Shown: piece by piece, positions 21,875-56,952 of the stretch
Position numbering within the stretch: the stretch's first letter is position 1
Layout of the letters: each line of letters starts with the position of its first letter
Source: an uncultured bacterium
GTDB lineage: Bacteria > Omnitrophota > Omnitrophia > Omnitrophales > Aquincolibacteriaceae
Direction: 5' to 3'
Length of the DNA: 64,000 bases
Assembly (NCBI GenBank): GCA_964606385.1
Contig: CAZSFZ010000001.1
Location: 3,519-67,518 of the forward strand
Position numbers and translations under genes: made by a program
The notes under the pieces: generated by a model
The model's input: the letters and a program-made list of their open reading frames with translations, nothing else
What the model was told of the DNA's origin: nothing
Databases searched by the model: none

Positions 21875-21880
21875 CGGATC

Positions 21881-26585: not shown

Positions 26586-26597
26586 GCGCGACGGCCT

Positions 26598-27338: not shown

Positions 27339-27350
27339 AACGCTCCTTTT

Positions 27351-27581: not shown

Positions 27582-27597
27582 AGGACCTTTCCTTTTT

Positions 27598-27876: not shown

Positions 27877-27885
27877 GCGCGGCCG

Positions 27886-30861: not shown

Positions 30862-33800
30862 TTACTTTTCCCCGCCGAACTCGAGCCAGGACTTTACGAT
30901 CGCCTTGGGCTCTTCGGCCTGCTGACCCAACTTCTCGCGCGCGCTGGCGTCTGTTGCCTCTTTCACCGCGAGAATATAGGCCTTCACTTCCTCCAGCTTG
31001 CCCTGCATCAGGTTGAGATTTGATTCCCCGCCCTTCATGACTTTTTTGATCTCATCGCCCACAAAACCGAGCGCCTTGGCCTGGTCGTTAGCGAGCGTCA
31101 CGAGGCGATTCACCAGCTCTTCGGTCTTTTTACCGGCATCACTGCTTTCTTTGGAAATCGCCGATGTCGCCTGCTGCACCTGTTCGAGGAGCGATTCAAA
31201 CTCTGCCATGCGATCCGTGATGGTCGGCTGCCCGTTCCGTTTACCGATCACTTCGTCAAGCTCCTTCACGGTATTCATGATGGTATAGGTCGAGGAATCA
31301 ATATCGGCAATTGTCTGTTCTTTATTACTGATCGCTTTCATGCCCGACCAATTCACATCCCCGGTACTCAGGTCGGCGATCCCCTGCCAATTGATCCCCG
31401 CCTTGGTCTGGGTGGCAAGGCCCTGCCAGCTCACGCCGCCCGTCATCACGGAAAGATCTTCCCAATTGATCCCCGCTTCGGTCAAAGCGTTCATATCCGT
31501 CCAGTTGATGCCGGCCACCGAAAGCCTGCTGATATCATCCCAATTTACGCCCGCTTCCGAAAGCACCGCGATCTCATCCCAATTCACGCCTCCCTCGGAG
31601 AGAGCGCGGATCCCGTTCCAATTCACGCCGGCATCAGTCATGGTCTTGAGATCGTTCCAATCGATGCCGGTCACGGAGAGGGTCCGGATATCGCTCCAGT
31701 TCACGCCCGCGGTCGTCATGACCGTCAGGTTGCTCCAATTAACGTTGGCGTCGGACATGGCGGCGATACTGTTCCAGTTGACTCCCTTCGCGGAAAGATC
31801 CTGCAATGCCTGCCAATTCACGCCCGCCAGGGACAGCGCCGTAAGTCCTTCCCAATTCACCCCGGCTTTGGAAAGAACATCCATCTCTGTCCAGTTGATC
31901 CCGGTTCGAGAAAGCGCCCGAAGATCGTTCCAGTTAATCCCGGCGCGCGAAAGAGCGTTGAAATCGCCCCAGTTCACGCCCGTACGGCTCAGCACGTTGA
32001 TATCAGTCCAATTCACCCCGGCTTTGGAGAGCGCCCCGAGATCCAGCCAGTTCACCCGGGCCTGGGTCAGACTGTTCAGATCCGACCAGTTGACGCCGGT
32101 TTTGGTGAGCACTTCTACATCCTGCCAGTTAACTCCGGCCGTCGAAAGCCTGCCGATGTCCTGCCAATTCACGCCTCCCATGGAAAGCTCGCGAATCCCC
32201 GTCCAGTTGATCCTGCTCCGCGAGAGCGCGTCAAGACCGGCCCAGTTCACGCCGGCTTTCGACAAAGCCCCCATATCCAGCCAGTTCACGCCCGCACGCG
32301 TCATGGTGTTCAGGTCCGCCCAGTTCACGCCGCCCACGGAAAGCGCCCGGATTCCGGTCCAGTTCACGCCCGCCTTGGAAAGAGTGCTCATATCAAACCA
32401 ATTCGTACCCGCCTTGGTCATCACCCCGAAGTCAGCCCAGTTCACACCTGTCCGTGAGATCACGCGCATGTCGGCCCAATTGACCCCCACACGGGACATA
32501 ACGCCCATATCCAGCCAGTTTACGCCGGCTTTCGAAAATACGCCGAGGTCGGCCCAGTTCACATCGCTTTCCGAGATCGTCTTCATCCCCGCCCAGTTCA
32601 CCTGGCCGCGGGACATAGCGTTAATCCCCAACCAGTTCACACCGGCTGCGGACATCAGCTGCATGTCCTGCCAATTAACATTCACTTTGGACATAACGCT
32701 GAAATCGCTCCAGTTCACGCCCGCGACTGAAAGACTGCGGATCCCGTTCCAATCCACCCCGGCCCTTGAGAGCACGTTGATCCCGCTCCAGTTCACCCCT
32801 GCACTGGACATATTGGCAAGATTATCCCAATCCACTCCCGCCTGCGTGATCATATTGATCCCGCTCCAGTTGATCGCAGCCTGCGACATCGTGGCAAGAT
32901 TGGTCCATGAAATGTTCGAACTCGCCATTTTCGCGAAATCGACCCAGTTGACGCGCGCCTTCGTGATCTCATTCATACCCGCCCAATTGACATTTGCCCG
33001 CGCCAGAAGATCCAAGTTACTCCAGTTCACACCCGCGCGCGTCATGAAGCCCAGGTCTGCCCAGTTCACGCGTGAATCCGACATCCGGTTGAACTCATTC
33101 CAGTTCACGCGCGCGCTGGTCATGGCCTGGAGATCCGTCCAGTTGACACGCGCCGTGGAAAGCTCACGAAGGTTGCTCCAGTTCACGCCCGACCGGGAAA
33201 GCGCGTCGATCCCCGACCAGTTCACACCTGCCGCCGTAAATCTTCCCATATCCGCCCAATTGATACCGGCACGCGTCATCACTTGAAAATCCGACCAGTT
33301 GATCCCTTCCCGAGTGATCACACGAAGATCGGCCCAATTCACCCCGGCCTTACTGAGGACATCAAATCCGGTCCAATTCACACCCGTCCTCGACAAGACC
33401 CCCATATCCAGCCAATTGACGCCCGCGCGCGAAAGTGCGTCGATCCCGCTCCAGTTCACGCCGCCGCGCGACATCACGCCGATATCATTCCAATTCACCT
33501 GGGCTTTCGCCATCCGGTCGAATTCCGCCCAGTTCACGCCCGCCCTCGAAAGAGCGTCGATGTTATTCCAGTTGACCCCGGAACGGGACATTCTTCCCAT
33601 ATCTTCCCAATTGATCCGGGCGGACGACATGCGATCAAATTCCGCCCAGTTGACCCCGGCTTTGGAAAGGGCTTCGATATTAAGCCAGTTCACGCCCGCC
33701 CGCGTCATCACGCCGAAATCACTCCAGTTGATATTGGCCGCGGCCATCCGGTTGAATTCACTCCAGTTCACGCCCGCGGTCGTCAAAGCCCGCATATCCA

Positions 33801-36800: not shown

Positions 36801-39800
36801 AGTTCACACCCGCGCGCGACATCACGTTCAGATCATCCCAATTCACTCCCCCGCGGGAAAGAGCCTGGATCCCGGACCAATTCATCCCCACCCGCGACAT
36901 GACATTGAGATCGGTCCAGTTCACGCCGCTTTCCGAAAGCGCCTGCATGCCGTTCCAATTCACCCCTGCTTTCGAAAAAGCCCCGATGTCCAGCCAGTTC
37001 ACACCCGCGCGCGACATCACATTGAGATCCGACCAGTTGATGTTCGTGCGGCTAATGACATCCAATCCGGACCAGTTCACATTCGCTTTTGACATCGCGC
37101 CCATATCCAGCCAGTTCACACCCGCGCGCGTCATCACATTGAGATCCGACCAGTTGATGTTCGTGCGGCTGATCACATCCAACCCGGACCAATTCACGCC
37201 CGCTTTGGACATCACGCCCATATCCAGCCAGTTCACGCCGCCACGGGAAAGTGCCTGCATCCCTTCCCAATTGACACCGCCGCGGGAGAGCGCGTCGATT
37301 CCCGACCAGTTCACGCCCGCCTTGGACATCGTTCCCATATCCAGCCAGTTCACACCCGCTCGCGTCATCACATTGAGATCCGACCAGTTGATATTCGTGC
37401 GGCTGATGACATCCAACCCGGACCAGTTCACGTTCGCTCTGGTAAGCGCACTCAGATCCATCCAGTTGACGCCCGCGCGAGTCAGGACGTTGAGATCCGA
37501 CCAATTGATATTCGTGCGGCTAATGACATCCAACCCGGACCAATTCACGCCGGCCTTCGACATCTCCCCGATATCCAGCCAGTTCACGCCTCCCAACGAA
37601 AGCGCCTGGATCCCGCTCCAATTCACTCCGCCCGCCGAGAGGGCCTGGATCCCGCTCCAGTTCACTCCGGCCTTGGACATCACACCCATATCGAGCCAGT
37701 TCACACCGCCGAGGGAAAGAGCCTGCATGCCTTCCCAGTTCACGCCGCCGCGGGAAAGCGCGTCAATGCCGGACCAATTCACGCCCGCCTTGGACATCGT
37801 CCCCATATCGAGCCAATTGACGCCCGCCTTGGACATAACATTTAAATCCAACCAATTGACGCCGCCCCTTGAAAGCGCATCGATCCCCGACCAGTTCACC
37901 CCGGCCTTCGACATCACGCTCATATCGAGCCAATTTACGCCGGTCTTCGACATCACATTCAGATCCGACCAGTTCACGCCGCCGACCGAAAGCGCCTGAA
38001 TCCCGTTCCAATTGACGCCCGCCTTGGAGAACGCTTCCATATCGAGCCAGTTCACGCCCGCACGGGACATCACATTAAGGTCAGTCCAGTTCACACCACC
38101 GCGGGAAAGCGCGTCGATCCCACTCCAGTTCACGCCAGCTTTCGAGAGCACGCCCATATCAAGCCAGTTCACGCCCGCCTTGGTCATCGTATTCAAATCA
38201 GACCAGTTGACGCCCGCACGCGTCAGGACATTCATATCCGACCAGTTCACACCGGCCTTCGACATGACATCCAGATTGGACCAGTTGACGCCCGCTTTTG
38301 AAAGCGTCCCCACATCCAGCCAGTTCACACCGCCGCGAGAAAGAGCGTCAATGCCGGACCAATTCACGCCAGCCTTCGACATGATCCCGATATCCAGCCA
38401 GTTCACGCCGCCGGAAGAAAGAGCCTGGAGACCGCTCCAATTGACGTCGCTTTGCGAAAGAACGCTCATGCCGCTCCAGTTCACACCGGCCTTCGACATT
38501 TCTCCCATATCCAGCCAATTCACGCCGGCCTTGGACATCACATTCAGATCCGACCAGTTCACGCCGCCAACCGAAAGCGCCTGAACCCCGCTCCAGTTCA
38601 CCCCTGCTCTGGAAAGAACCTGCATATCCAGCCAGTTCACGCCGCCTTTGGAGAGCGCATCAATGCCGGACCAATTCACACCGGCTTTAGAAAGCGCTCC
38701 CATATCCAGCCAGTTCACACCGGCTTTGGTCATCACATTGAGATCTGTCCAATTCACCCCCGTCTTGGAAAGCACATTGAGATCCGACCAGTTCACGCCG
38801 CCGACCGAAAGCGCCTGGATCCCATTCCAGTTAACGCCCGCTTTGGAGAGCACGCCCATGTCGAGCCAATTCACACCGCCGCGGGAAAGCGCGTCAATGC
38901 CCGACCAGTTCACACCGGCCTGCGAAAGAACGCCCATATCCAGCCAGTTCACGCCCGCTCTTGTCATTTTGTTCAGATCGGACCAATTCACGCCCGCTCG
39001 CGTCAAGACATTCCAGTCCGTCCAGTTCACCGCCGCGCGGGACATCACACCCATATCAAGCCAGTTCACCCCCGCCTTCGAAAGCGCGTTCAGATCCGAC
39101 CAATTCACGCCGCCTTTGGAGAGAGCGTCGATCCCTGACCAGTTCACGCCCGCTTTGGAGAGCACGCCCATGTCGAGCCAGTTCACACCCGCACGAGACA
39201 TCACATTAAAATCGGACCAGTTCACGCCGGTTTTCGAAAGAACATCGAGATCCGACCAATTCACGCCGGCACGGCTCATCACATTCATGTCGGACCAATT
39301 CACTCCCGCGCGGGACAACGCGTTCATGCCGGACCAGTTCACGCCCGCCTTGGAAAGAACATCAAAGTCGGCCCAATTAACGCCGGCCTTGGACATCGTC
39401 CCCATATCCAGCCAGTTCACGCCGGCCTTGGACATCACATTAAGATCGGACCAGTTCACACCCGCTTTCGACAGCACATCCAGATCCGACCAGTTCACAC
39501 CGCCGACTGATAGCGCCTGGATCCCGTTCCAGTTCACGCCCGCACGGGACAGAGCGTTCATCCCGCTCCAGTTCACTTGTCCGCGGGAAAGCGCGTCGAT
39601 CCCCGACCAATTGACTCCCGCTTTTGAGAGTACGCCCATATCAAGCCAGTTCACACCCGCGCGCGACATCACATTAAAATCGGACCAGTTCACGCCGGTC
39701 TTCGAAAGGACATCGAGATCCGACCAGTTGATCCCCGCACGCGTCAGGACATTCATATCCGACCAATTCACCCCGGCTTTGGACATCACGTTCAAGTCAG

Positions 39801-42800: not shown

Positions 42801-45800
42801 CGTTCCAGTTCACGCCCGCCTTCGACATCACGTTGAAATCCGCCCAATTCACTCCCGACTTCGAAAGCACGTCGATCCCCGACCAGTTCACTCCGGCCTT
42901 GGAAAGCGTCCCCATGTCCGCCCAGTTCACGCCCGCCCGCGACATCACATTAAAATCGGACCAGTTCACCCCCGTCCGCGAAAGCACATCAAGATCCGAC
43001 CAGTTCACGCCCGCCTTCGACATCACTCCCATGTCCAGCCAGTTCACGCCCGCGCGGGAGAGCGCGTCGATCCCACTCCAGTTCACGCCTCCTAATGAAA
43101 GCGCCTGGATCCCGTTCCAGTTCACGCCCGCTTTTGATAGCACGCCCATGTCGAGCCAGTTCACGCCCGCACGCGACATCACATTAAAATCGGACCAGTT
43201 CACGCCCGTTCGCGAAAGCACATTGAGATCGGACCAATTCACTCCCGCTTTTGACATCACTCCCATATCCGCCCAGTTCACACCAGCCTTCGACATCACA
43301 TTCAGATCCGTCCAGTTCACGCCGGCCTTCGAAAGCACGTCGATCCCCGACCAGTTCACGCCCGCCTTGGAAAGCGCTCCAAGGTCAAGCCAGTTCACTC
43401 CGGCCTTGGACATCACGTTCATGTCCGCCCAGTTCACACCCGTGCGCGAAAGAACATTCATATCCGCCCAGTTCACACCGGCCTTTGAAAGAACGTCGAT
43501 CCCCGACCAGTTCACGCCGGTCCTGGAAAGAACATTCATATCCGCCCAATTGACTCCCGACCTTGAGAGCGCGTCAATGCCGCTCCAGTTCACGCCCGCC
43601 TTGGAAAGAACGTTCATGTCCGCCCAGTTCACGCCCGCGCGCGTCATGACGTTAAGATCCGACCAGTTGACCCCTGCGAGCGTTAAGGCATTCATATCCG
43701 CCCAGTTCACACCTGTTTTTGAGAGGACATTCAAGTCCGCCCAATTCACGCCCGCGCGAGACATCACATTAAAATCAGACCAATTGATACCCGCTTTCGA
43801 AAGCACGTCGATCCCCGACCAATTGACTCCCGCTTTGGAGAGCACTCCCATATCCAGCCAGTTCACACCCGCGGTTGAAAGCGCGTTCAGCCCCGACCAA
43901 TTCACGCCGGTTCGAGAAAGCACATTCAGGTCCGACCAGTTCACACCCGCTTTCGACATCGCCCCAAGATCAAGCCAGTTGGTCCCGGCCTTGGACATTA
44001 CGTTAAGGTCCGACCAATTCACGCCTCCGACCGAAAGCGCCTGGATCCCGTCCCAGTTCACTCCCGCTTTCGAAAGCGTTCCCATATCCGACCAATTCAC
44101 GCCGGCCTTAGACATCACATTCATATCCGCCCAATTGACGCCGGTGCGCGTCAGCACATTCATATCCGTCCAGTTAATACCGGCTTTGGACAACACATCG
44201 ATCCCGCTCCAGTTCACGCCGGCACGCGACATCACATTCATGTCGGACCAATTCACGCCCGCCTTCGAAAGCACATCGAGACCATTCCAATTGACCCCCA
44301 TCCGGGACAATACGTTCATATCAGACCAATTCACGCCGGCACGCGACATGACATTCAGATCCGTCCAGTTCACACCCGCCCGGGTTAAAACATTCATATC
44401 CGACCAGTTCACACCCGCTTTGGACATGGCTCCCATATCCAGCCAGTTCACGCCCGCTTTTGACATAATATTGAGGTCGGACCAGTTCACACCCGCCTTC
44501 GAGAGCACATCAATTCCCGACCAGTTCACACCCGCTTTCGACAAAACGCCCATATCCGACCAATTCACGCCGGCTTTGGACATCACATTCATATCCGCCC
44601 AATTGACGCCGGTGCGCGTCAGCACATTCATATCCGTCCAGTTAACACCCGCCTTTGAGAGCACATCGATGCCCGTCCAGTTCACACCGGCAAGCGACAT
44701 CACATTCAGATCCGTCCAATTCACGCCCGTACGCGTCAGAACATTCATGTCGGACCAGTTCACACCAGCCTTGGACATCACGCCCATATCCGACCAGTTC
44801 ACGCCGGCACGCGTCATCACGTTGAGATCCGCCCAGTTCACGCCCGTGCGCGTCAGAACATTCATGTCAGACCAATTCACACCGGTTTTTGAAAGCACGT
44901 TAAGATCGGACCAATTGACACCCGCTTTCGACATCACATTGAGGTCCGACCAATTGACGCCTCCGACCGAAAGCGCCTGGATCCCGCTCCAGTTCACGCC
45001 CGCTTTCGAAAAAACGTCCAGATCCGACCAGTTCACACCCGCGCGCGACATCGCCTGCAGATCCGCCCAGTTGACCCCCGTACGAGACAGAACATTAAGA
45101 TCCGACCAATTCACACCCGCCTTCGAGAGCACATCGATCCCCGACCAGTTCACGCCCGCTTTCGAAAGCACGTTCATATCCGCCCAGTTCACACCCGCTT
45201 TCGAGAGCACATCGATCCCCGACCAGTTCACACCCGCCTTTGAAAGCACGCCCATATCCAGCCAGTTAACCCCGGCCTTGGACATCACGTTGAGATCCGA
45301 CCAATTCACACCTGTGCGCGAAAGCACATTCAGGTCCGTCCAGTTCACACCGCTTCGCGACAGCACATCGATGCCGCTCCAGTTCACGCCGGCCTTCGAC
45401 ATCACGTTCATGTCCGCCCAATTCACACCGCTTCGGGATAACGCGTCCATCCCGCTCCAATTCACACCGGCTTTCGAAAGCACTCCCATATCCGCCCAGT
45501 TCACGCCGGCCTTTGACATCACGTTCAGATCGGTCCAGTTCACGCCCGCTTTGGAAAGCACATCGATCCCCGACCAATTCACGCCCGCTTTGGAAAGAAC
45601 GTCCATATCCGCCCAGTTCACCCCAGCACGGGACATCACATTCAGATCCGCCCAGTTGACTCCCGTGCGAGAAAGAACATTAAGGTCCGCCCAGTTCACC
45701 CCGCTTCGCGACAACGCGTCGATCCCGGTCCAATTCACGCCGGCTTTCGACATCACATTCAGATCCGCCCAGTTCACGCCGCTTCGTGACAGCGCATCGA

Positions 45801-48800
45801 CCCCGCTCCAGTTCACACCCGCTTTCGACAGCACGCCCATGTCCAGCCAGTTCACTCCGGCCTTCGACATCACATTCAGATCCGACCAGTTGATCCCCGT
45901 TCTCGAAAGAACGTTCATGTCGGACCAATTCACGCCGGCTTTCGAGAGCACATCGATCCCCGACCAGTTCACGCCGGCGCGCGACATCACGTTGAGATCC
46001 GTCCAATTCACTCCAGCCTTTGAAAAGACGTCGATCCCGCTCCAGTTGAGACCCGCCTTGGAAAACACGCTCAGATCCGACCAATTCACACCCGCACGCG
46101 AGAGCGCGTTCAGATCCGCCCAGTTCACACCGGCTTTCGAGAGCACATCGAGATCCGCCCAATTCACACCGCTACGGGAGAGAGCATCGAGTCCGGTCCA
46201 GTTGACGCCGGCGCGTGACATCACCTGAAGGTCCGTCCAGTTCACGCCCGTACGCGTAAGCACGTTCATATCCGACCAGTTCACCCCCGCCTTCGAGAGC
46301 ACGCCCATATCGGCCCAATTCACGCCGGCCTTGGACATCACATTGAGATCCGTCCAGTTTACGCCCGTTTTCGAGAGCACATCGATCCCCGACCAGTTCA
46401 CCCCCGCCTTCGAAAGCGTTCCCATGTCCAGCCAGTTCACACCCGCCTTGGACATCACGTTGAGATCCGACCAATTGACCCCTGCGCGCGTCAGCACATT
46501 CATGTCGGACCAGTTGATCGCGGCTTTTGAGAAAACCTCGAGATCAAGCCAATTCACCCCCGCTCGGGACATAGCGTTAAGATCCGCCCAGTTCACGCCC
46601 GTCTTGGAAAGCACATCCAGGTCGGACCAATTGACGCCCGCGGCCGCAAGCGCCTGGATCCCGCCCCAATTGATCCCGGCACGCGACATAACATTGAGAC
46701 CGGACCAATTGAGGCCGGCACGGCTCAAAGCGTTCATGTCCGCCCAGTTCACACCCGCGCGACTCATCACGTTCATATCCGCCCAGTTCAGGCCCGCCTT
46801 GGACAAGGTTCCGATATCGATCCAGTTCACGCCCGCTTTCGACATGACGTTGAGATCCGCCCAGTTCACGCCGGCTTTCGAAAGCACGTCGATCCCGCTC
46901 CAATTGACTCCGGCCTTCGACAGCACGCCCATATCCAGCCAGTTCACACCCGCCTTGGAAAGCGCGTCCATGCCGCTCCAGTTCACACCGGTCCTTGAAA
47001 GTACGTTCATGTCGGACCAGTTCACTCCGGCTTTCGACATCGCCCCCATATCCAGCCAATTCACGCCCGCACGGGTCATGACATTCAGATCGGTCCAGTT
47101 CACGCCGGTTTTGGAAAGCACGTCCAGATCCGACCAATTCACGCCGGCCTTGGACAGGGCCCCCATATCCAGCCAGTTCACGCCCGCTTTTGAGAGGGCA
47201 TCGATCCCCGTCCAATTCACGCCCGTTTTCGAAAGAACGTTCAGGTCCGCCCAATTCACGCCCGTTCTCGACATCACATTAAGATCGGTCCAGTTCACGC
47301 CCGTGCGCGTCAGCACATTCAGATCCGTCCAATTCACGCCGGCTTTGGAAAGAACATCCATCCCGCTCCAGTTCACGCCGGCCTTCGACAGAACATTAAA
47401 ATCCGTCCAGTTCACGCCGCCGCGCGAAAGCGCGTCGATCCCGGTCCAGTTCACCCCGGCTGCGGAAAGCGCCCCCATATCCAACCAGTTCACGCCCGCT
47501 TTCGTCATCACGTTCATATCGGACCAATTAATGCCCGCGCGCGTCAGCACATTCAGATCCGTCCAATTCACACCCGCTTTAAAGAGAACGTCCATCCCGG
47601 TCCAGTTCACGCCGGCCCGCGACATCGCCTGGAGGTCTGTCCAGTTCACGCCCGTTTTGGAAAGCACGTTCAAGTCCGCCCAATTCACGCCCGATTTCGA
47701 CAAAATATCGATCCCGCTCCAGTTCACACCGGCTTTCGACAGCACACCCATATCCAGCCAGTTGATGCCGGTCTTCAGCATAACATTAAGATCGGTCCAG
47801 TTGAGTCCCGCGCGGGTCAGAACATTGAGGTCCGACCAGTTGACCGCGGCCGTCGAGAGCGCGTTGAGGTCCTGCCAATTGACCCCCGCTTTCGAAAGTA
47901 CGTTCAGATCTGACCAGTTGACGCCGCTCCGTGACAACGCATCCATTCCGCTCCAGTTCACACCCGCCGCCGCGAGCGCCTGCATGCCGCTCCAGTTCAC
48001 GCCGCTTCGCGAGAGCGCGTCAATGCCCGTCCAGTTCATCCCGGCTTTCGACAGCACGCCGATATCCGACCAGTTGATCCCCGTTTTTGTGATCACCTGA
48101 AGGTCCGTCCAATTAACACCCGTTCTTGAGAGCACGTTCAGATCCTCCCAATTCACCCCCGCTTTCGATAACACATCGATGCCAGACCAATTCACGCCGG
48201 CTTTGGACAAGGCCCCCATATCCAGCCAGTTCACGCCGGCCCTGGACATCGTCTGAAGGTCTGTCCAGTTGACACCCGTCTTCGAGAGCACGTTCAGATC
48301 CGTCCAGTTCACACCGGCCTTCGACATCGCGCCTACGTCCAGCCAGTTCACGCCCGCTTTCGAGAGGACATTCAGATCCGTCCAGTTCACGCCGCCTCGC
48401 GAGAGCGCGTCGATGCCAGACCAGTTCACGCCCGCTTTGGACATCACCTGAAGATCCGTCCAGTTTAAATTCGCCCGGCTCAAGACGTTGAGATCAGACC
48501 AGTTCACGCCAGCCTTGGAAAGAACATTGAAATCCGTCCAGTTGATCCCGGCCTTGGACATGGTCCCCATCACGGACCAATTCACGCCGGCCTTGGACAT
48601 CACATTGAGATCGGCCCAGTTCACGCCGGCCGCGGAAAGCATCCCCACATCCAGCCAGTTCACGCCAGCCCTGGAAAGAACATTGATCCCCGTCCAGTTC
48701 ACCCCGGCTTTGGACATCACGTTCAAGTCCGTCCAGTTCACCCCCGCTTCCGAAAGAGCATCCACGCCGCTCCAATTCACACCCGCTTTGGAAAGCGCTC

Positions 48801-51800
48801 CCACGTCCGTCCAATTCACCCCAGCCTTGGACATAGCATCGATCCCGCTCCAGTTCACGCCGGCCACCGCAAGCGCCTGGATCCCGGCCCAGTTCACGCC
48901 TCCCCGGGACAGCGCATTGATCCCGGTCCAGTTGATCCCGGCCTTGGACAGCACGTTGAGGTCGGCCCAATTCACTTCAGATTTGGAGAGCGCGTCGATC
49001 CCGACCCAGTTGACCCCGGCCTTGGACAGTACATTAATGTCCGTCCAGTTCACGCCGGCCGCCGAAAGCGCCTGCACCCCGCTCCAATTAACGCCTGCCC
49101 TTGAGAGAACATCGATCCCGATCCAATTCACACCGGCCCTTGAAAGAGCCTGGATCCCGCTCCAGTTCACGCCGCTACGCGACAGGGCCTCGATCCCGCT
49201 CCAGTTCACGCCGGCCTTGGACAGTACGTTAATATCCGTCCAGTTCACGCCGGCCCGCGAGAGGGCGTTCATGCCGCTCCAGTTCACACCTTGTTTGGAA
49301 AGCACTTCCATGTCCAGCCAGTTCACCCCGGCGGTCGAAAACGCCTGGATCCCGGTCCAGTTGACACCGGCTTTTGAGAAAACATTAAGGTCGGTCCAGT
49401 TCACGCCCGCTTTCGAAAGCACATCGATCCCTGTCCAATTCACACCTTGATTGGAAAGAACGCCCATATCGGTCCAGTTGATCCCGGCTCTGGAAAGAGC
49501 ATCCATGCCGCTCCAGTTGATCCCGATCCGTGAAAGAACGTTAAGGTCCGACCAGTTCACGCCCGATTTGGAAAGCGCATCCACCCCGCTCCAGTTGATC
49601 CCAGCCCGTGAAAAAACATTCAGATCCGTCCAGTTCACACCCGCTTTCGAAAGGGCATCGAGGCCGCTCCAGTTCATGCCCGCTTTGGAAAGAGCGCCGA
49701 TATCCAGCCAGTTCACGCCCGCCGCCGAAAGCGCTTGGATCCCGCTCCAGTTCACGCCGGTTCTGGAAAGAACATTAAGGTCCTGCCAGTTAAGACCCGT
49801 TTTGGAAAGCAATCCGAAATCGACCCAGTTCACGCCCGCGGCCGCGAGAGCCTGCATGCCGTTCCAGTTCACGCCGGTTTTGGACAGAACACCCATATCC
49901 AGCCAGTTCACACCGGCCCTCGACATCACATCGATGCCCGTCCAGTTAACGCCGGCTTGCGAAAGGGCGTTGATGTCGCTCCAGTTCACATTGGCCCGCG
50001 ACAAAACCTGAAGATCCGTCCAGTTCACGCCCGCCCTGGAGATCACATCCACGCCGCTCCAATTGACGCCGGCCTTGGACAAGGCTCCGATATCCAGCCA
50101 GTTCATACCGGCCCGCGACATCACGTTAAGGTCGGCCCAGTTGATCCCCGTCACGGAAAGGTTTTGAAGATCGGACCAGTTGATCCCCGCTTTGGAGAGA
50201 ACGTTCAGGTCGATCCAGTTCACGCCGGCCTTGGAAAGAACATCCATACCGTTCCAGTTCACCCCTGCTTTCGACATCACATCAATGCCCGTCCAGTTCA
50301 CGCCCGCTTTGGAGAGCGCGTCGATCCCGGTCCAGTTGACGCCCATGCGTGAGATCACCTGAAGGTCCGTCCAATTCACACCGGCCCGGGAAAGCACATT
50401 GAGATCGGTCCAGTTGACGCCGGCCTTGGAAAGAGCGTCCATCCCGCTCCAGTTCACACCCGCCCGGGAGAGCGCGTTAAGATCCGACCAGTTGACACCC
50501 GTACGCGAAAGAACGTTCAGGTCTTCCCAATTGACCCCTGCCTTCGAAAGCACATTAAGGTCGGTCCAGTTCACTTGACTTGCCGCTAGCGCCTGCATTC
50601 CGGACCAGTTGACACCCGCCGCGGAAAGCAGATCAAGATCGGACCAGTTCACACCCGCTTTCGAGAGCACGCCGAAATCGGACCAGTTCACGCCGGCTTT
50701 GGAGAGCACGCCGAAATCAGTCCAGTTCACACCGCTCACCGAAAGCGCGTTCAGGCCGTCCCAGTTCACGTTCGCCGTGCTCATGACGCGCATGTCGGTC
50801 CAGTTCACATTCGCTTTGGTCAGCGCCGCGAGATTGTCCCAGTTGATGGTCTCCGACCAGTTGACCTTGGCGCCGGTCATCTTGGCGAAGTCATCCCAGT
50901 TCGCGCCTGCCCGCGACATCCGCTGGATATCCGCCCAGTTGACGCCGGCCTGCGCCATCACCTGAAGATCCGTCCAGTTGATCCCGATACCCGCCATCTT
51001 GCCCACGTCCAGCCAGTTCACGCCGCTCGCCGAAAGCGCCTGAATCCCGGACCAATTGACGCCGCCCACCGAAAGGGCTTCGATGCCGCTCCAATTGACG
51101 TTGGCTTTACTCAACTTGGAAAGATCGGACCAGTTCACCCCCACCGCCGACAAAGCACCGATATCCTCCCAGTTGATCCCGGCCTTCGCCAAGCGCCCGA
51201 TATCGCTCCAATTAACTCCGGACGTCGTCAGTTGCGCAAGGTCCTGGAAATTGATATTTGAAGTGCTGAACTGCATGATCTCCGACCAGCGGATCCCGGC
51301 ACGCGTAAGCGTACGGACGTCCTCCCAGTTCATGCCTTTCGAGGACATTTCGGCAAGATCATTCCAGTTAACACGCGCCTCCGACATAATCTTCAAATCG
51401 TCCCAGTTCGCTTTGGCGACCGCGATCAAAATATCCCCTGTCCGTTTGTAAAGGGTCTCGGCTGAATTCGCCCCAACCGCCGTCTTGATCGCCTGAATAT
51501 CGTCCCAGTTCATCAGATCGGTCTTGGCTTTGATGTCGGTGGTTTTGGTGTCGATGCTGCCTAAAGTAGAAACCGCGCCGGCGATGCCGCCCTGGATCGC
51601 CGTGTTGTAGGCAAATCGCGAGGAATAATCATTCCCTTTATAAGTGATGGTGACATCGGCCACGTAAGTATCGGAATTGGTGGGGGGCGTCCAGGATTGG
51701 CGGAACACGCTGTTATTCTTGATCGTTGCAGCGCCGGGAGCCGTAACCGCATCCCAGTTTTTATCATAGACGGTGATGGAGATATGCCCGGATGAAAAAC

Positions 51801-52374
51801 CCGAGTCCGAAATGATGGCGCCCGCACGCTCGATCCAGCTGTTGATCAAATAAGCATTCGATTCAAAGCTCAGCTCGGAACGGACCGTGTATTCGCCGAC
51901 CAGAATGCTGAACGAGTCCGAAGTCGCGGAAATGATGCCGCTGTCCGAGGCCTGAAGCGTGTACAGCTCTCCGGCCTTGTCAATATTGAGCCCCTTCCCC
52001 GAAAAATCCGCGACGCCCGCCACCGCGTCCATCGAGACCGTTCCCCGCAGAGTGCCGCCGGTAGGATTATTAAGAATGGCGAGAGTGATCGTATCCGTCG
52101 CATCCGTCACCACATTGTTGTTAATATCGAGGATCTGAACGACGGGGGCCGGATCAAAGGTCTGACCTGCGGCCGTGGACTGGGGCTGGGTGGAAAAATA
52201 AAGTTTATAAGCCGTCGCGGCGGCACTGCCCTCCACCGAACTGGACCCGTCATAACTTCCGCCCGTGTAGATCGCGGCCTGGGCCGGGATGGAACCGAAC
52301 ACAAAAAAGAGAATGGAAAGCAAGGCGATCAGCCTGGAACCTCGGACCTTATTTAAAACAGAGGGGGCGTTCAT
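30862..52374 (-). CDS. Giant (7,170 aa) secreted repeat protein: signal peptide and Ig-like N-terminal region, about 500 tandem 13-residue GVNW repeats, helical C-terminal ~200 aa
   Basis: Single uninterrupted 21.5-kb ORF. ATG overlaps the upstream stop (ATGA). Signal peptide MNAPSVLNKVRGSRLIALLSILFFVFGSIPAQA. Repeat consensus [LM]S[KR][AT]GVNW[STLA][DG][LMI][NDG][VA], e.g. LSKAGVNWSDLNVMSRAGVNWLDMGVLSKAGVNWSGIDALSK. Confidence 0.85.
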   Translation of the reverse strand: MNAPSVLNKVRGSRLIALLSILFFVFGSIPAQAAIYTGGSYDGSSSVEGSAAATAYKLYFSTQPQSTAAGQTFDPAPVVQILDINNNVVTDATDTITLAILNNPTGGTLRGTVSMDAVAGVADFSGKGLNIDKAGELYTLQASDSGIISATSDSFSILVGEYTVRSELSFESNAYLINSWIERAGAIISDSGFSSGHISITVYDKNWDAVTAPGAATIKNNSVFRQSWTPPTNSDTYVADVTITYKGNDYSSRFAYNTAIQGGIAGAVSTLGSIDTKTTDIKAKTDLMNWDDIQAIKTAVGANSAETLYKRTGDILIAVAKANWDDLKIMSEARVNWNDLAEMSSKGMNWEDVRTLTRAGIRWSEIMQFSTSNINFQDLAQLTTSGVNWSDIGRLAKAGINWEDIGALSAVGVNWSDLSKLSKANVNWSGIEALSVGGVNWSGIQALSASGVNWLDVGKMAGIGINWTDLQVMAQAGVNWADIQRMSRAGANWDDFAKMTGAKVNWSETINWDNLAALTKANVNWTDMRVMSTANVNWDGLNALSVSGVNWTDFGVLSKAGVNWSDFGVLSKAGVNWSDLDLLSAAGVNWSGMQALAASQVNWTDLNVLSKAGVNWEDLNVLSRTGVNWSDLNALSRAGVNWSGMDALSKAGVNWTDLNVLSRAGVNWTDLQVISRMGVNWTGIDALSKAGVNWTGIDVMSKAGVNWNGMDVLSKAGVNWIDLNVLSKAGINWSDLQNLSVTGINWADLNVMSRAGMNWLDIGALSKAGVNWSGVDVISRAGVNWTDLQVLSRANVNWSDINALSQAGVNWTGIDVMSRAGVNWLDMGVLSKTGVNWNGMQALAAAGVNWVDFGLLSKTGLNWQDLNVLSRTGVNWSGIQALSAAGVNWLDIGALSKAGMNWSGLDALSKAGVNWTDLNVFSRAGINWSGVDALSKSGVNWSDLNVLSRIGINWSGMDALSRAGINWTDMGVLSNQGVNWTGIDVLSKAGVNWTDLNVFSKAGVNWTGIQAFSTAGVNWLDMEVLSKQGVNWSGMNALSRAGVNWTDINVLSKAGVNWSGIEALSRSGVNWSGIQALSRAGVNWIGIDVLSRAGVNWSGVQALSAAGVNWTDINVLSKAGVNWVGIDALSKSEVNWADLNVLSKAGINWTGINALSRGGVNWAGIQALAVAGVNWSGIDAMSKAGVNWTDVGALSKAGVNWSGVDALSEAGVNWTDLNVMSKAGVNWTGINVLSRAGVNWLDVGMLSAAGVNWADLNVMSKAGVNWSVMGTMSKAGINWTDFNVLSKAGVNWSDLNVLSRANLNWTDLQVMSKAGVNWSGIDALSRGGVNWTDLNVLSKAGVNWLDVGAMSKAGVNWTDLNVLSKTGVNWTDLQTMSRAGVNWLDMGALSKAGVNWSGIDVLSKAGVNWEDLNVLSRTGVNWTDLQVITKTGINWSDIGVLSKAGMNWTGIDALSRSGVNWSGMQALAAAGVNWSGMDALSRSGVNWSDLNVLSKAGVNWQDLNALSTAAVNWSDLNVLTRAGLNWTDLNVMLKTGINWLDMGVLSKAGVNWSGIDILSKSGVNWADLNVLSKTGVNWTDLQAMSRAGVNWTGMDVLFKAGVNWTDLNVLTRAGINWSDMNVMTKAGVNWLDMGALSAAGVNWTGIDALSRGGVNWTDFNVLSKAGVNWSGMDVLSKAGVNWTDLNVLTRTGVNWTDLNVMSRTGVNWADLNVLSKTGVNWTGIDALSKAGVNWLDMGALSKAGVNWSDLDVLSKTGVNWTDLNVMTRAGVNWLDMGAMSKAGVNWSDMNVLSRTGVNWSGMDALSKAGVNWLDMGVLSKAGVNWSGIDVLSKAGVNWADLNVMSKAGVNWIDIGTLSKAGLNWADMNVMSRAGVNWADMNALSRAGLNWSGLNVMSRAGINWGGIQALAAAGVNWSDLDVLSKTGVNWADLNAMSRAGVNWLDLEVFSKAAINWSDMNVLTRAGVNWSDLNVMSKAGVNWLDMGTLSKAGVNWSGIDVLSKTGVNWTDLNVMSKAGVNWADMGVLSKAGVNWSDMNVLTRTGVNWTDLQVMSRAGVNWTGLDALSRSGVNWADLDVLSKAGVNWADLNALSRAGVNWSDLSVFSKAGLNWSGIDVFSKAGVNWTDLNVMSRAGVNWSGIDVLSKAGVNWSDMNVLSRTGINWSDLNVMSKAGVNWLDMGVLSKAGVNWSGVDALSRSGVNWADLNVMSKAGVNWTGIDALSRSGVNWADLNVLSRTGVNWADLNVMSRAGVNWADMDVLSKAGVNWSGIDVLSKAGVNWTDLNVMSKAGVNWADMGVLSKAGVNWSGMDALSRSGVNWADMNVMSKAGVNWSGIDVLSRSGVNWTDLNVLSRTGVNWSDLNVMSKAGVNWLDMGVLSKAGVNWSGIDVLSKAGVNWADMNVLSKAGVNWSGIDVLSKAGVNWSDLNVLSRTGVNWADLQAMSRAGVNWSDLDVFSKAGVNWSGIQALSVGGVNWSDLNVMSKAGVNWSDLNVLSKTGVNWSDMNVLTRTGVNWADLNVMTRAGVNWSDMGVMSKAGVNWSDMNVLTRTGVNWTDLNVMSLAGVNWTGIDVLSKAGVNWTDMNVLTRTGVNWADMNVMSKAGVNWSDMGVLSKAGVNWSGIDVLSKAGVNWSDLNIMSKAGVNWLDMGAMSKAGVNWSDMNVLTRAGVNWTDLNVMSRAGVNWSDMNVLSRMGVNWNGLDVLSKAGVNWSDMNVMSRAGVNWSGIDVLSKAGINWTDMNVLTRTGVNWADMNVMSKAGVNWSDMGTLSKAGVNWDGIQALSVGGVNWSDLNVMSKAGTNWLDLGAMSKAGVNWSDLNVLSRTGVNWSGLNALSTAGVNWLDMGVLSKAGVNWSGIDVLSKAGINWSDFNVMSRAGVNWADLNVLSKTGVNWADMNALTLAGVNWSDLNVMTRAGVNWADMNVLSKAGVNWSGIDALSRSGVNWADMNVLSRTGVNWSGIDVLSKAGVNWADMNVLSRTGVNWADMNVMSKAGVNWLDLGALSKAGVNWSGIDVLSKAGVNWTDLNVMSKAGVNWADMGVMSKAGVNWSDLNVLSRTGVNWSDFNVMSRAGVNWLDMGVLSKAGVNWNGIQALSLGGVNWSGIDALSRAGVNWLDMGVMSKAGVNWSDLDVLSRTGVNWSDFNVMSRAGVNWADMGTLSKAGVNWSGIDVLSKSGVNWADFNVMSKAGVNWNGLQALSVGGVNWAGIDVMSKAGINWSDMNVMSRAGVNWSDFNVLSKAGVNWSDMNVLTRAGVNWSDLNVMSKAGVNWSDMGVLSKAGVNWSGIDALSKGGVNWSDLNVMSRAGVNWADMSAMSQAAVNWSDFNALTRAGVNWSDMNVMSRAGVNWLDMGVLSKAGVNWSGIDALSKGGVNWADLNIMSKAGVNWLDMGAMSKAGVNWSDLNVLTRTGVNWADLNVMSRAGVNWLDMGVLSKAGVNWSGIDALSKGGVNWADLNIMSKAGVNWSGLQALSVGGVNWSGIDVLSKAGVNWTDLNVMSKAGVNWADMGVMSKAGVNWSDLNVLSRTGVNWSDFNVMSRAGVNWLDMGVLSKAGVNWNGIQALSLGGVNWSGIDALSRAGVNWLDMGVMSKAGVNWSDLDVLSRTGVNWSDFNVMSRAGVNWADMGTLSKAGVNWSGIDVLSKAGVNWADLNVMSKAGVNWADMGVLSKAGVNWSGMDVLSKAGVNWTDMNVLTRAGVNWADMGVLSRAAVNWEDWNALSRTGINWSDLNVMSRAGVNWLDMGVLSKAGVNWSGMDVLSKAGVNWMDMNVMSRAGVNWSDMGVLSKAGVNWSGIDALSKGGVNWSDMNVMSRAGVNWLDMSAMSKAAVNWSDLNVLSRTGVNWSDLNVMSRAGVNWLDMGTMSKAGVNWADFDVLSKAGVNWSGLNVMSRAGVNWDGIQALSVGGVNWSGIDALSRASVNWSDLDVMSKAGVNWSDMNVMSRAGVNWSDLNVLSRTGVNWSDFNVMSRAGVNWLDMGVLSKAGVNWAGIDVLSKAGVNWADLNVFSRAGVNWADMGVMSKAGVNWSDMNILTRTGVNWSDMNVMTRAGVNWLDMGVLSKAGVNWSGIDALSKGGVNWSDLNIMSKAGINWLDMSVLTSASVNWADLNVLSRTGVNWSDFNVMSRAGVNWLDMGVLSKAGVNWSGIDALSRGGVNWSGIDALSKAGVNWLDMGTMSRAGVNWAGIDALSRGGVNWADLNVMSKAGVNWSDMNVLTRAGINWSDLDVLSKTGVNWSDFNVMSRAGVNWLDMGVLSKAGVNWSGIDALSRGQVNWSGMNALSRAGVNWNGIQALSVGGVNWSDLDVLSKAGVNWSDLNVMSKAGVNWLDMGTMSKAGVNWADFDVLSKAGVNWSGMNALSRAGVNWSDMNVMSRAGVNWSDLDVLSKTGVNWSDFNVMSRAGVNWLDMGVLSKAGVNWSGIDALSKGGVNWSDLNALSKAGVNWLDMGVMSRAAVNWTDWNVLTRAGVNWSDLNKMTRAGVNWLDMGVLSQAGVNWSGIDALSRGGVNWLDMGVLSKAGVNWNGIQALSVGGVNWSDLNVLSKTGVNWTDLNVMTKAGVNWLDMGALSKAGVNWSGIDALSKGGVNWLDMQVLSRAGVNWSGVQALSVGGVNWSDLNVMSKAGVNWLDMGEMSKAGVNWSGMSVLSQSDVNWSGLQALSSGGVNWLDIGIMSKAGVNWSGIDALSRGGVNWLDVGTLSKAGVNWSNLDVMSKAGVNWSDMNVLTRAGVNWSDLNTMTKAGVNWLDMGVLSKAGVNWSGIDALSRGGVNWTDLNVMSRAGVNWLDMEAFSKAGVNWNGIQALSVGGVNWSDLNVMSKTGVNWLDMSVMSKAGVNWSGIDALSRGGVNWLDLNVMSKAGVNWLDMGTMSKAGVNWSGIDALSRGGVNWEGMQALSLGGVNWLDMGVMSKAGVNWSGIQALSAGGVNWSGIQALSLGGVNWLDIGEMSKAGVNWSGLDVISRTNINWSDLNVLTRAGVNWMDLSALTRANVNWSGLDVISRTNINWSDLNVMTRAGVNWLDMGTMSKAGVNWSGIDALSRGGVNWEGMQALSRGGVNWLDMGVMSKAGVNWSGLDVISRTNINWSDLNVMTRAGVNWLDMGAMSKANVNWSGLDVISRTNINWSDLNVMSRAGVNWLDIGAFSKAGVNWNGMQALSESGVNWTDLNVMSRVGMNWSGIQALSRGGVNWDDLNVMSRAGVNWLDMGALSKAGVNWSGIQALSRGGVNWDDLNVMSKAGVNWLDMGALSKAGVNWNGMQALSRGGVNWDDLNVMSRAGVNWQDMGVFSKAGVNWAALNELTRANINWADLNVMTTGVNWLDLGVMSKAGVNWNGIQALSRGGVNWDDLNTMSKAGVNWLDMGTLSKAGVNWNGIQALSRGGVNWDDLNVMSRAGVNWLDMGTLSKAGVNWNGIQALSIGGVNWSDLNVMSQAGVNWLDLRAMTIANVNWAALNELTRTNVNWSDLNVMTSGVNWLAMGLLTQSGVNWTDINVMSRAGVNWEDFTALSTSNVNWEGFNVMSRAGVNWSGIQALSVGGVNWMDLDVMSRAGVNWLDMGALSKAGVNWSGIQTLSAGGVNWDDLNVMSRAGVNWLDMGALSKAGVNWNGIQALSVGGVNWTDLNVMSRAGVNWLDMGIMSKTGVNWSGIDALSRSGVNWSGIDVMSRAGVNWLDMGALSKAGINWSGIDVLSRTSVNWLDLGEMSKAGVNWLSMGALSIAGINWSDLNVMSRVGMNWLDMGALTKAGVNWLDMGALSKAGVNWAEFNRMAAANVNWSDFSTMTREGINWGSIGSLSKAGVNWEEFNRMSAAGVNWDNLGSMTQAGVNWLDMGALTKAGVNWAGLDAISRTSVNWDDMRAMTRAGVNWLSIGTLSTAGVNWAEFNRMSAAGLNWDDFGVMTRAGVNWLDMGSLSKSGVNWGGMDALSRAGVNWLDMGALTQAGVNWAGLNAISRTSINWNDLNVMTRAGVNWTNMGDMTTAGVNWIALNNIIGSDVNWSGLNAITRAGINWIDFGTMTRAGVNWDGLETISKTNVNWNDLNVMTRAGVNWLDIGALTDAGINWSGINTISRTGINWNDLRVMTRSGINWVDMGALTAAGVNWEGFNAISRTNINWDDLHVMTRAGVNWLDMGALSKAGVNWAEFNRMAQANVNWSDFGVMTRAGVNWFNIEALSKAGVNWAEFDRMAKANVNWNDMGVMSRAGVNWLDMRALTTAGVNWSEFNRMAAANINWSDFGVMTRAGVNWLNIEALSKAGVNWAEFDRMSSARINWEDMGRMSRSGVNWNNIDALSRAGVNWAEFDRMAKAQVNWNDIGVMSRGGVNWSGIDALSRAGVNWLDMGVLSRTGVNWTGFDVLSKAGVNWADLRVITREGINWSDFQVMTRAGINWADMGRFTAAGVNWSGIDALSRSGVNWSNLRELSTARVNWTDLQAMTSARVNWNEFNRMSDSRVNWADLGFMTRAGVNWSNLDLLARANVNWAGMNEITKARVNWVDFAKMASSNISWTNLATMSQAAINWSGINMITQAGVDWDNLANMSSAGVNWSGINVLSRAGVDWNGIRSLSVAGVNWSDFSVMSKVNVNWQDMQLMSAAGVNWLGINAMSRGQVNWAGMKTISESDVNWADLGVFSKAGVNWLDMGVMSRVGVNWADMRVISRTGVNWADFGVMTKAGTNWFDMSTLSKAGVNWTGIRALSVGGVNWADLNTMTRAGVNWLDMGALSKAGVNWAGLDALSRSRINWTGIRELSMGGVNWQDIGRLSTAGVNWQDVEVLTKTGVNWSDLNSLTQARVNWLDLGALSKAGVNWTDINVLSRTGVNWGDFNALSRAGINWNDLRALSRTGINWTEMDVLSKAGVNWEGLTALSLAGVNWQALQDLSAKGVNWNSIAAMSDANVNWSNLTVMTTAGVNWSDIRTLSVTGIDWNDLKTMTDAGVNWNGIRALSEGGVNWDEIAVLSEAGVNWDDISRLSVAGINWTDMNALTEAGINWEDLSVMTGGVSWQGLATQTKAGINWQGIADLSTGDVNWSGMKAISNKEQTIADIDSSTYTIMNTVKELDEVIGKRNGQPTITDRMAEFESLLEQVQQATSAISKESSDAGKKTEELVNRLVTLANDQAKALGFVGDEIKKVMKGGESNLNLMQGKLEEVKAYILAVKEATDASAREKLGQQAEEPKAIVKSWLEFGGEK
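31345..51510 (-). repeat. About 20-kb array of degenerate 39-nt tandem repeats (encoding the 13-aa GVNW unit), with a 117-nt (3x13 aa) super-period in places
   Basis: The plus strand shows ccagttcac (reverse complement GTGAACTGG = VNW) recurring every 39 nt from ~31.35 kb to ~51.5 kb. The units are diverged at the nucleotide level. Confidence 0.85.
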
Positions 52375-56945: not shown

Positions 56946-56952
56946 TTTTTTC

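Follow-up and report, generated by a model that had tools for sequence, protein, structure and literature searches.

To our knowledge, protein glycosylation of the STT3 type has been described in bacteria chiefly for Campylobacterota and for some Desulfobacterota. The Campylobacter pgl system relies on PglB, a single-subunit member of the STT3 family with two DXD motifs and a TIXE motif, which acts on Sec-exported periplasmic proteins. In mycobacteria, pairs of a family 2 glycosyltransferase (GT2) and a DUF2304 protein (PpgS/Rv3632) make monophosphate-linked single-sugar donors. Long repetitive surface fibres are represented by the serine-rich repeat adhesins GspB/Fap1, which depend on an accessory Sec system and dedicated glycosyltransferases and receive O-GlcNAc in the cytoplasm before SecA2/Y2 export. 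Archaeal AglB glycosylates archaellins and pilins (PMC5131992), and for Omnitrophota West-Roberts et al. 2023 (bioRxiv 10.1101/2023.11.21.568195) describe giant proteins (Archaeovorins, Dockerin-type) with adjacent loci resembling type II secretion systems (T2SSs). Here, we describe a locus of an uncultured Omnitrophota bacterium (Aquincolibacteriaceae) on a 64,000-nucleotide stretch of DNA (GenBank assembly GCA_964606385.1, contig CAZSFZ010000001.1, positions 3,519 to 67,518), hereafter the window, to which all coordinates refer unless a related locus (L001 to L086) is named. It encodes a 7,170-aa protein built largely from 13-residue units around an Asn-Trp dipeptide (the NW protein) and, 15.7 kb away and thus close to the ~16 kb stated in an earlier note on this DNA, an STT3-like enzyme.

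What is new is a bacterial STT3-type system that combines a rebuilt acceptor pocket with coupling to a T2SS-like machine and to a novel fibre of 13-residue repeats. We hold with moderate confidence that the NW protein is a clade-specific fibre cargo, that transfer by the STT3-like enzyme would not be directed by N-x-S/T, and that the Asn-Trp pair is structural. This concerns a whole Omnitrophota lineage, in which an STT3 clade combines an intact catalytic centre, a rebuilt acceptor pocket, a gene within a secretion operon and a co-inherited giant fibre. If the enzyme glycosylates the fibre, its acceptor specificity would be new and of interest to glycoengineering.

How does the locus compare with the described systems? 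As in the pgl system, a single STT3-family enzyme with DXD, DXD and TIXE motifs would act on a Sec-exported protein. It differs in that WWPPG stands in place of WWDYG, that the enzyme is embedded in a T2SS-like operon, and that the 7,170 residues hold only three D/E-x-N-x-S/T sites, in agreement with the earlier remark that the repeats do not have the bacterial PglB form. Neither a PglC-type initiating phosphoglycosyltransferase nor a PglK/Wzx-type flippase family was seen among the window's scanned open reading frames (ORFs), which held only GT2 and GT-C types of glycosylation enzyme, and the donors would thus be monophosphate-linked sugars. With the archaeal system of AglB and an AglJ-type dolichyl-phosphate hexose synthase, whose targets are archaellins, pilins and S-layer proteins, the locus shares an STT3 gene tied to type IV filament machinery and surface proteins (here by gene content), an adjacent AglJ-like GT2 gene, for which a monophosphate-linked donor is plausible, and a DGGK-like motif in the form DGGT; here, however, the host is bacterial, the Asp of the Ser/Thr pocket is lost, the pilins are devoid of sequons and the candidate acceptor is a 7,170-aa fibre. 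The likeness to GspB/Fap1 is one of arrangement, a single locus combining a long repetitive surface fibre, an export machine and glycosyltransferases, whereas chemistry and compartment differ and there is no homology. As in the mycobacterial PpgS (Rv3631)/Rv3632/Rv3779 pathway, a GT2-DUF2304 pair stands beside GT-C enzymes, and PpgS is the best NCBIfam match of the GT2 at 15237..15944 (89.8 bits, cut-off 370), followed by AglJ (66.1 bits, cut-off 325); both scores are below equivalog level, and the acceptor in mycobacteria is arabinogalactan. The Archaeovorins and Dockerin-type proteins belong to the same phylum and likewise pair a very long gene with a conserved T2SS-like locus. The NW fibre, at 7,170 aa, is below their 30,000-aa class, has a single hydrophobic segment instead of a TM-rich body (TM, transmembrane) and, by Pfam on its N-terminal, repeat and C-terminal pieces, has no SecA, enzyme, HEAT, dockerin or TSP3 domain. 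In the accessible parts of the literature on Omnitrophota giant proteins we found no mention of a 13-residue NW repeat, of a link to STT3 or of embedded F-type ATPase genes, nor did we find literature linking Omnitrophota with STT3 or oligosaccharyltransferases.

An STT3-family enzyme with a rebuilt acceptor pocket

The STT3-like enzyme (851 aa) is encoded at 12606..15161 on the minus strand. Pfam recovers the STT3 domain with 58.4 bits (cut-off 24.5), STT3-PglB_core lying just below its own threshold (22.6 versus 23). A PDB search with the family profile returned chains of STT3, AglB and PglB only (E-values to 3e-21; STT3A 78.6, AfAglB 70.6 and PglB 29.9 bits), with no ArnT or PMT among the matches. 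By these profile comparisons, the protein is a true GT-C enzyme of the STT3/AglB/PglB family and not of the ArnT/PMT type, so that the STT3-like assignment of the earlier note was upheld and its concern about an ArnT-type classification did not materialize.

The catalytic motifs are kept. The acidic residues of the first DXD motif (EADPYHY, D120), the second DXD motif (YDTDPY, D240 and D242) and the TIXE/SVSE motif (TVGE, E376) do not vary across 29 homologues, whose identity goes down to 22%, and W538, W539 and G542 are equally invariant. The WWDYG motif, by contrast, reads WWPPG, having lost its Asp while both Trp and the Gly are invariant, and SWWPPGYFIT aligns column by column with SWWDYGYQIT of human STT3A. 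Across the Omnitrophota STT3 clade, WW[P/S/A/C/T]PG takes the place of WWDYG. The form WW[P/C/S/A]PG is present in about 95 of 97 full-length homologues, in all 19 enzymes from related loci and in at least 105 of 115 further cluster representatives (the top-scoring 50%-identity clusters among 1,448 profile matches with E<1e-30); a few more distant, longer relatives retain WWD[YF]G. The DGGK motif is partly kept as DGGT with the Lys replaced (D556 and G557 at least 90% conserved), ADGGTQH aligning to DNNTWNN of STT3A. As to the DK/MI motif, alignments to STT3A stop ~17 residues before the expected DK, and the family consensus contains no conserved D..K. A crude Kyte-Doolittle scan, which gives an approximate topology, places ~10–11 hydrophobic segments before aa 506 and a soluble C-terminal domain of ~345 aa behind them; the canonical STT3 fold has 13 TM segments.

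What might the loss of this Asp entail? Together, the motifs WWDYG and DK/MI build the Ser/Thr-binding pocket and are listed as family-defining (PMC8342417), and the Asp missing here hydrogen-bonds the Ser/Thr at the +2 position (PMC8342417; bioRxiv 10.64898/2026.09.03.749169), with D527 of human STT3A bonding both the +2 hydroxyl and the backbone NH (bioRxiv 10.64898/2026.09.03.749169). The combination of kept catalytic motifs and a lost WWDYG Asp suggests that the clade retains the chemistry, whereas its sequon-reading part has been rebuilt. This bears directly on the idea of a classical N-oligosaccharyltransferase that glycosylates the Asn in ~265 N-W-S/T units and yields a densely N-glycosylated fibre. 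Such an enzyme would fit a true STT3-family member with the acidic residues of DXD, DXD and TIXE intact, yet the whole clade lacks the WWD Asp and shows no identifiable DK/MI motif, and it is these motifs that form the Ser/Thr pocket (PMC8342417).

A distant relative that keeps WWDYG (P0102, 958 aa) is encoded at 2839–5715 of L086, directly upstream of a Tad-like pilus cluster that comprises RcpC, an FHA-TadA-like ATPase and two TadB/C-like genes; an NW protein is not in view there. This arrangement suggests a broader link between STT3 enzymes and type IV filament machinery in this lineage, recalling archaeal AglB.

The 13-residue repeat and the residue after Asn-Trp

The ORF at 30862..52374 (minus strand) runs uninterrupted for 21.5 kb and is a real gene. 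Its 7,170-aa product contains no cysteine and a single hydrophobic segment over its entire length, which coincides with a signal peptide at aa 1–33 (52276..52374; MNAPS...GSIPAQA, cleaved before AIYTGGS). We recognized the latter by eye, without a predictor, from its AxA-type cleavage site, which is followed by the homologue-conserved motif AAIYTGGSYDGSS. These features point to a Sec-exported, cysteine-free fibre protein, a prediction that forms part of our overall explanation and shares its moderate confidence. Behind the signal peptide, a non-repetitive N-terminal domain (aa 34–285; 51520..52275, minus strand) is common to the Omnitrophota homologues P0103–P0119 and is Ig-like by homology: ~100 of its residues match proteins of other phyla that are named Ig-like or beta-strand-repeat at their source, while Pfam gave no match for this domain. 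The repeat array (aa 287–7018; 31321..51516, minus strand), delimited by Asn-Trp spacing, consensus and super-repeat, holds ~511 units of 13 aa. A ~150-aa coiled-coil-like domain closes the protein (30862..31320, minus strand) and ends in AIVKSWLEFGGEK, with a tail motif, [AV][IV]VK[SA]W[LY]E, that is conserved in NW cargo proteins.

All named homologues of the repeat protein, and likewise of the STT3-like enzyme, come from Candidatus Omnitrophota. The former share the N- and C-terminal domains and show 20–80 visible repeats; contig ends of metagenome-assembled genomes cut the NW arrays in L010, L013, L016, L024, L029 and L066, and many database homologues are annotated as 'partial'. Long ORFs also lie antisense to the array (31340–50352, plus strand; e.g. 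38648..46228, 2,526 aa). Since homologues match the minus-strand translation only, these are by-products of a stop-free repeat. GC skew across the array is strongly negative (-0.21 to -0.31).

The protein contains 511 Asn-Trp dipeptides, spaced by exactly 13 residues in 499 of 510 cases, and the unit follows the consensus G-V-N-W-[S/L/A/T]-[D/G]-h-x-x-h-S-[K/R]-A. A super-period of three units (39 aa) is superimposed, unit identity being 0.61–0.64 at lags 3, 6, 9 and so forth and 0.53–0.56 at others. There are 360 distinct units among the 511, and the longest exact nucleotide repeat spans 503 nt. Gly occupies the position two before the repeat Asn in 90% of units, and Ser or Thr fills unit position 11 in 97% of the units in the window and in 85% across the family.

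Which residues follow Asn-Trp? Over the 511 units, Ser (198), Leu (86), Ala (73), Thr (67), Asn (26) and Asp (21) predominate, so that N-W-S/T accounts for 265 units (52%). The ~60% that the earlier note had estimated from 12 of 20 repeats was therefore a slight overestimate. The hundreds of minimal sequons that it foresaw are also there, 270 N-x-S/T sites (x not Pro) in all as compared to 114 ± 9 in composition shuffles (z = 17). As the units are tandem duplicates, however, this z-score overstates independence and says little about sequons. The share of N-W-S/T, counted in bins of 50 units, is 54–74% over the first ~350 units and 24–36% over the last ~160. It depends on the unit subtype, with Ser/Thr at +2 in 12% of xDMG units (Leu in 66%), 73% of SG units and 61% of xDxN units. 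The same position varies across the family: in 27 homologue fragments (781 units) it holds Ser (21%), Thr (20%), Asp (18%), Ala (13%), Asn (8%), Glu (6%) or Leu (5%), and the Ser/Thr share ranges from 18% in L014 (mostly Asp) to 93% in L017, with 41% pooled and low values of 18–28% in L014, L015, L021 and L002. When the last 69 units of the window protein are aligned to the closest relative, L006 (72% identity), unit position 5, that is +2, is the least conserved of the thirteen (25% identity, others 43–100%), as it is relative to three more distant orthologues (10–19% identity). At the degenerate ends of the array, Trp is kept while Asn is swapped for Asp, Ser or Arg.

A structural role would account for this pattern. 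The invariance of Gly1, Asn3 and Trp4, together with the turn propensities of Gly and Asn, suggests that the Asn-Trp pair is probably structural. Residue preferences at helix N-caps are textbook knowledge, and the mix of Ser, Thr, Asp and Asn at +2, with a near-invariant Asp/Gly next to it and a short predicted helix beyond, fits a helix-start or turn position. The helix, at unit positions 7–12, is the only hint provided by low-confidence AlphaFold2 models, whose pLDDT (predicted local distance difference test) was 39.6 for a 24-unit input, self-aligned over 58 in-register windows, and 38.1 for a 12-unit input with 40 window segments and 15 homologue segments. Ser/Thr after Asn-Trp would then come about incidentally, at a helix-start or turn position that is exposed and variable, a view resting partly on these models and held with the same middling confidence as the explanation to which it belongs. 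The earlier note had asked whether Ser/Thr at +2 exceeds the background of a surface-exposed loop; strictly taken, the frequency does not fall back to such a background, but a mix of Ser, Thr, Asp and Asn is what a helix start or turn would bring about without any glycosylation.

Where does this leave classical N-glycosylation of the repeat? The 265 N-W-S/T units, the excess of 270 sequons over 114 expected, the predicted export of the giant protein, the co-inheritance of the glycosylation module with the cargo and the 93% Ser/Thr of L017 all fit it. Yet +2 is the least conserved position of the repeat, Ser/Thr reaches 18–28% in four family members, and most sites (198 of 265) read N-W-S, which is weaker than NWT for the canonical oligosaccharyltransferase (bioRxiv 10.64898/2026.09.03.749169); moreover, earlier microsomal work cited in the same source reported Trp at +1 to be unfavourable. 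Together with the remodelled pocket, this makes a classical sequon-directed enzyme unlikely in our judgement. Thus, while the earlier hypothesis of a glycosylated fibre retains support from the synteny of the enzyme module with NW cargo (see below), its argument from N-x-S/T does not hold, given the lost WWDYG Asp, the fastest-evolving +2 position and a Ser/Thr share that ranges from 18 to 93% in the family and depends on unit subtype in the window. Even if the fibre carries no glycan, there is a general lesson: counting N-x-S/T in a repeat protein is unreliable where an invariant Asn belongs to the fold.

Alternatively, other residues of the repeat might be glycosylated, be it the Asn of the V-N-W context without a Ser/Thr at +2, position 11 through PMT_2-like O-glycosylation or the Trp through C-glycosylation. 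A remodelled Ser/Thr pocket next to an intact catalytic site suggests altered acceptor specificity, position 11 is nearly always Ser or Thr, and the STT3 gene stands in synteny with PMT_2-like and LA_3751/2-like GT-C genes as well as two DPM1-sized GT2 genes, counterparts of which occur in L003 and L005. Against this, the proposal is purely inferential, the invariance of Asn, Trp and Ser11 is more simply read as a folding constraint, the PMT_2 matches are marginal (27.3 and 19.5 bits), and the Trp residues are 13 apart, with no W-x-x-W/C motif as known for DPY19 C-mannosyltransferases. Altogether, we regard modification of other repeat residues as very unlikely. The boldest variant, a long shot at present, would make the WW[P/S/A]PG clade a new kind of bacterial protein glycosyltransferase, its acceptor being the V-N-W context or another repeat residue, with ~511 modifiable units per protein. 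If true, it would establish a new sequon and place the fibre among the most densely glycosylated proteins, served by a machine that unites a T2SS-like apparatus with F-type ATPase genes.

Two resemblances of the repeat were set aside. Lysostaphin_N (PF25533, 13-residue propeptide repeats), the only Pfam entry near threshold on the repeat segment, fell just short of its cut-off on a 312-aa stretch (44065–45000, minus strand; 59.5 versus 60 bits), probably a periodicity artefact driven by the shared 13-residue period and SKA/V.N letters. A likeness to dockerin/EF-hand loops (G-x-V-N-x-x-D-L) noticed by eye was dismissed, as Gly and Asp stand one residue too close together and the loop lacks its first half.

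A secretion supercluster with a probable clade-specific cargo

The giant gene is part of a long array of minus-strand genes: ExeA-like ATPase, secretin, TPR, FGE-sulfatase-like, giant gene, coiled-coil partner, F-type ATPase genes, GspE, GspF, GspG-like, two pseudopilins, PilM/N fusion, PilO-like, TPR, STT3-like, a 116-aa protein, GT2, GspK and an S41 protease. Immediately ahead of the STT3-like gene, the opposite strand carries the GT2-DUF2304 pair. L001 and L002, with NW family members of 868 and 1,292 aa, repeat the order of secretin, TPR, FGE-like, NW cargo, partner, ATPase and GspE/F/G, the FGE-like gene missing in L002, and carry GT2-DUF2304-GT2 beside the secretin instead. L003–L005 have STT3 homologues (38, 36 and 30% identity) at the tail of the same T2SS cluster.

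Is the glycosylation module tied to the NW cargo? To these loci we added 80 more, gathered with GspE as anchor and scored with the window proteins. In the 24 loci where the cargo side is visible as well as the far side of the T2SS genes, NW cargo and an STT3-like gene are both present in ten and both absent in 14, with no discordant locus (Fisher p = 5e-7, phylogeny ignored), and the association survives at least two gene-order variants. In the 14 negative loci, another large cargo, whose C-terminal tail is related, accompanies the same partner, ATPase and T2SS genes. In a GspE tree, all loci with NW cargo and STT3 form one clade, so that the association amounts to one origin, kept across deep divergence, rather than 24 independent observations, and we dropped the 10/0/0/14 count as independent evidence. 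What sets the NW clade apart, given that pilins, ATPase and partner are common to both clades, is the cargo body and the glycosylation module. Operon embedding and clade-wide retention thus render a functional tie of this module to the NW cargo plausible.

The cargo bodies differ, NW repeats in one set of clusters and large beta-rich proteins in others, yet they end in one C-terminal coiled-coil domain with the tail [P/A]-[IV]-V-K-[ST]-W-[LFM]-E (30862–30900 of the window as well as L023, L031, L047, L055, L071, L079 and L085); in the non-NW cargo of sister clusters the related tail reads P-[IV]-V-K-[ST]-W-x-E-S. The shared domain and tail may act as a signal for secretion or anchoring. The next gene downstream of the cargo always encodes a coiled-coil partner, in the window a 466-aa protein with a C-terminal TM segment at aa 407–425 (29397..30797, minus strand). 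At ~450 aa, it is conserved in NW and non-NW clusters alike, and its window copy had no family match.

Between the cargo/partner genes and GspE, in L001–L005 and most of L006–L085, sits a set of F-type ATPase genes, which Pfam identifies in the window as alpha, epsilon, c, b/delta fusion, gamma and beta (24223..29388, minus strand), with no a subunit seen in the cluster. Their order is alpha-first in the NW clade and b/delta-first in sister clusters. The conservation across dozens of Omnitrophota loci suggests that a rotary-ATPase-like module is functionally coupled to this secretion or filament machine. The T2SS genes, which also resemble those of type IV pili (T4P), follow at 16339..24226 (minus strand; Pfam) and encode TPR, PilO-like and PilM/N fusion proteins, three N-methyl pseudopilins (one GspG-like), a GspF-like protein and a GspE-like ATPase. 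The last (21881–24226, minus strand) bears a C-terminal extension of ~200 aa, called PilZ by Pfam in the homologues of L002–L005, which hints at control of the machine by cyclic di-GMP. A T2SS K-like minor pseudopilin (10078..11301, minus strand; T2SSK_1st, 78.8 bits) is encoded downstream of the STT3 gene and on its strand, in the same order as in L003.

The position of the STT3 gene raises a further alternative, namely that the NW fibre is not the substrate and that the module modifies pseudopilins, the partner, secretin-associated proteins or an envelope glycan or lipid, ancestry being merely shared with the cargo. The STT3 gene stands among pseudopilin and assembly genes (TPR, PilO, GspK) rather than beside the cargo, all NW/STT3 loci form one clade, and P0102, of the WWDYG type, beside its Tad-like cluster with no NW protein in view, keeps this alternative alive, much as archaeal AglB acts on archaellins and pilins. 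However, no N-x-S/T is conserved in the pseudopilins (three of four GspG orthologues lack one altogether), no other window protein is enriched in sequons, and it is the cargo and the glycosylation module, not the pilins, ATPase or partner, by which the NW clade differs from its sisters. We therefore consider a substrate other than the fibre possible, if rather improbable. Pseudopilins as classical N-glycan acceptors were rejected separately, the GspG-like orthologues being mostly without a sequon. The C-terminal I-V-N-W of these GspG-like proteins has no link to the NW repeat; we take it to be the ordinary GspG ending DDIxNW, as in PulG.

Returning to our favoured explanation, the secretin, cargo, TM-anchored coiled-coil partner, F-type ATPase genes and T2SS/T4P-like genes would form a supercluster in which the NW fibre is the clade-specific cargo. 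Its T2SS operon would harbour a glycosylation module of STT3-family enzyme (WWPPG), small exported protein and GT2 plus DUF2304. The GT2 enzymes would load sugars onto polyprenyl phosphate; in the periplasm, the STT3-like enzyme would pass these on either to the exported fibre or to some other component that the machine exports or displays outside the cytoplasm, in a transfer not directed by N-x-S/T, and the fibre would then cross the secretin. From the gene content, glycosylation of the fibre is plausible and, should it occur, a different acceptor rule is most likely. If true, this would explain how ultra-small, probably host-attached bacteria build a fibre that, by a rough estimate, is about as long as the cell.

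Several points weigh against this explanation. With a single NW/STT3 clade, the co-occurrence could reflect plain co-inheritance, and the STT3-like enzyme could act on a non-protein acceptor. The structural role of the Asn is deduced from conservation, the AlphaFold2 scores leaving the fold unmodelled, and 270 sequons versus 114 expected are compatible with some canonical glycosylation. The glycan itself is a prediction from genes.

Further genes of the module and the window

Of the remaining module genes, the GT2 at 15237..15944 (plus strand, 235 aa; Pfam Glycos_transf_2) is polyprenyl-phosphate sugar synthase-like (PpgS/AglJ/DPM1-like), and genes of its type adjoin the STT3 gene in L003, L004, L006–L018 and others. 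Its partner, a small DUF2304 membrane protein (15955..16335, plus strand; 71.6 bits), bears out the pairing proposed in the earlier note, and the pair is kept in L001–L004 and the type-A loci. Directly downstream of the STT3 gene, 12185..12535 (minus strand) encodes a 116-aa exported protein, so predicted from an N-terminal hydrophobic segment; it follows the STT3 gene in at least 12 loci and had no family match. The two further GT2 genes that had been proposed are present as well, at 11150..12181 (minus strand, 343 aa; Glycos_transf_2, 88.9 bits), whose counterpart adjoins GT2-DUF2304 in L001 and L002, and at 1798..2499 (minus strand; by family match). As for the two supposed PMT/ArnT-like paralogues, 2611..4245 (plus strand) passes PMT_2/PMT, albeit marginally (27.3 bits), whereas 4212..5969 (plus strand) is a weaker PMT_2-like paralogue below threshold (19.5 versus 26.1). 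A putative multi-TM glycosyltransferase resembling LA_3751/2 by library match lies at 6943..8370 (plus strand), and counterparts of the glycosylation genes in 1798..8370 are found near the STT3 gene in L003 and L005.

Upstream of the giant gene, 52371..58541 (minus strand) holds FGE-sulfatase-like, TPR and secretin genes, one for an unknown 225-aa protein and one for an ExeA-like AAA_22 ATPase, as identified with Pfam and in the same order as in L001 and L002. The stop codon of the FGE-sulfatase-like gene (52371–54014, minus strand) overlaps the ATG of the giant gene, the two being translationally coupled; L001 has two copies of this gene and L002 none. Formylglycine formation in the fibre by this neighbour was ruled out, as the fibre lacks cysteine and the gene is absent from L002. 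GldJ and GldK are gliding/type IX secretion system (T9SS) proteins with an FGE-type domain and, by analogy, the FGE-like domain may here be structural. At the window edge, 62951–63997 (minus strand) encodes a two-partner-secretion transporter of the ShlB/FhaC type, whose TpsA partner would fall outside the window, and at 60485–62839 (minus strand) LemA, two TPM-domain genes and a 180-aa unknown form an operon beside a 4-alpha-glucanotransferase gene.

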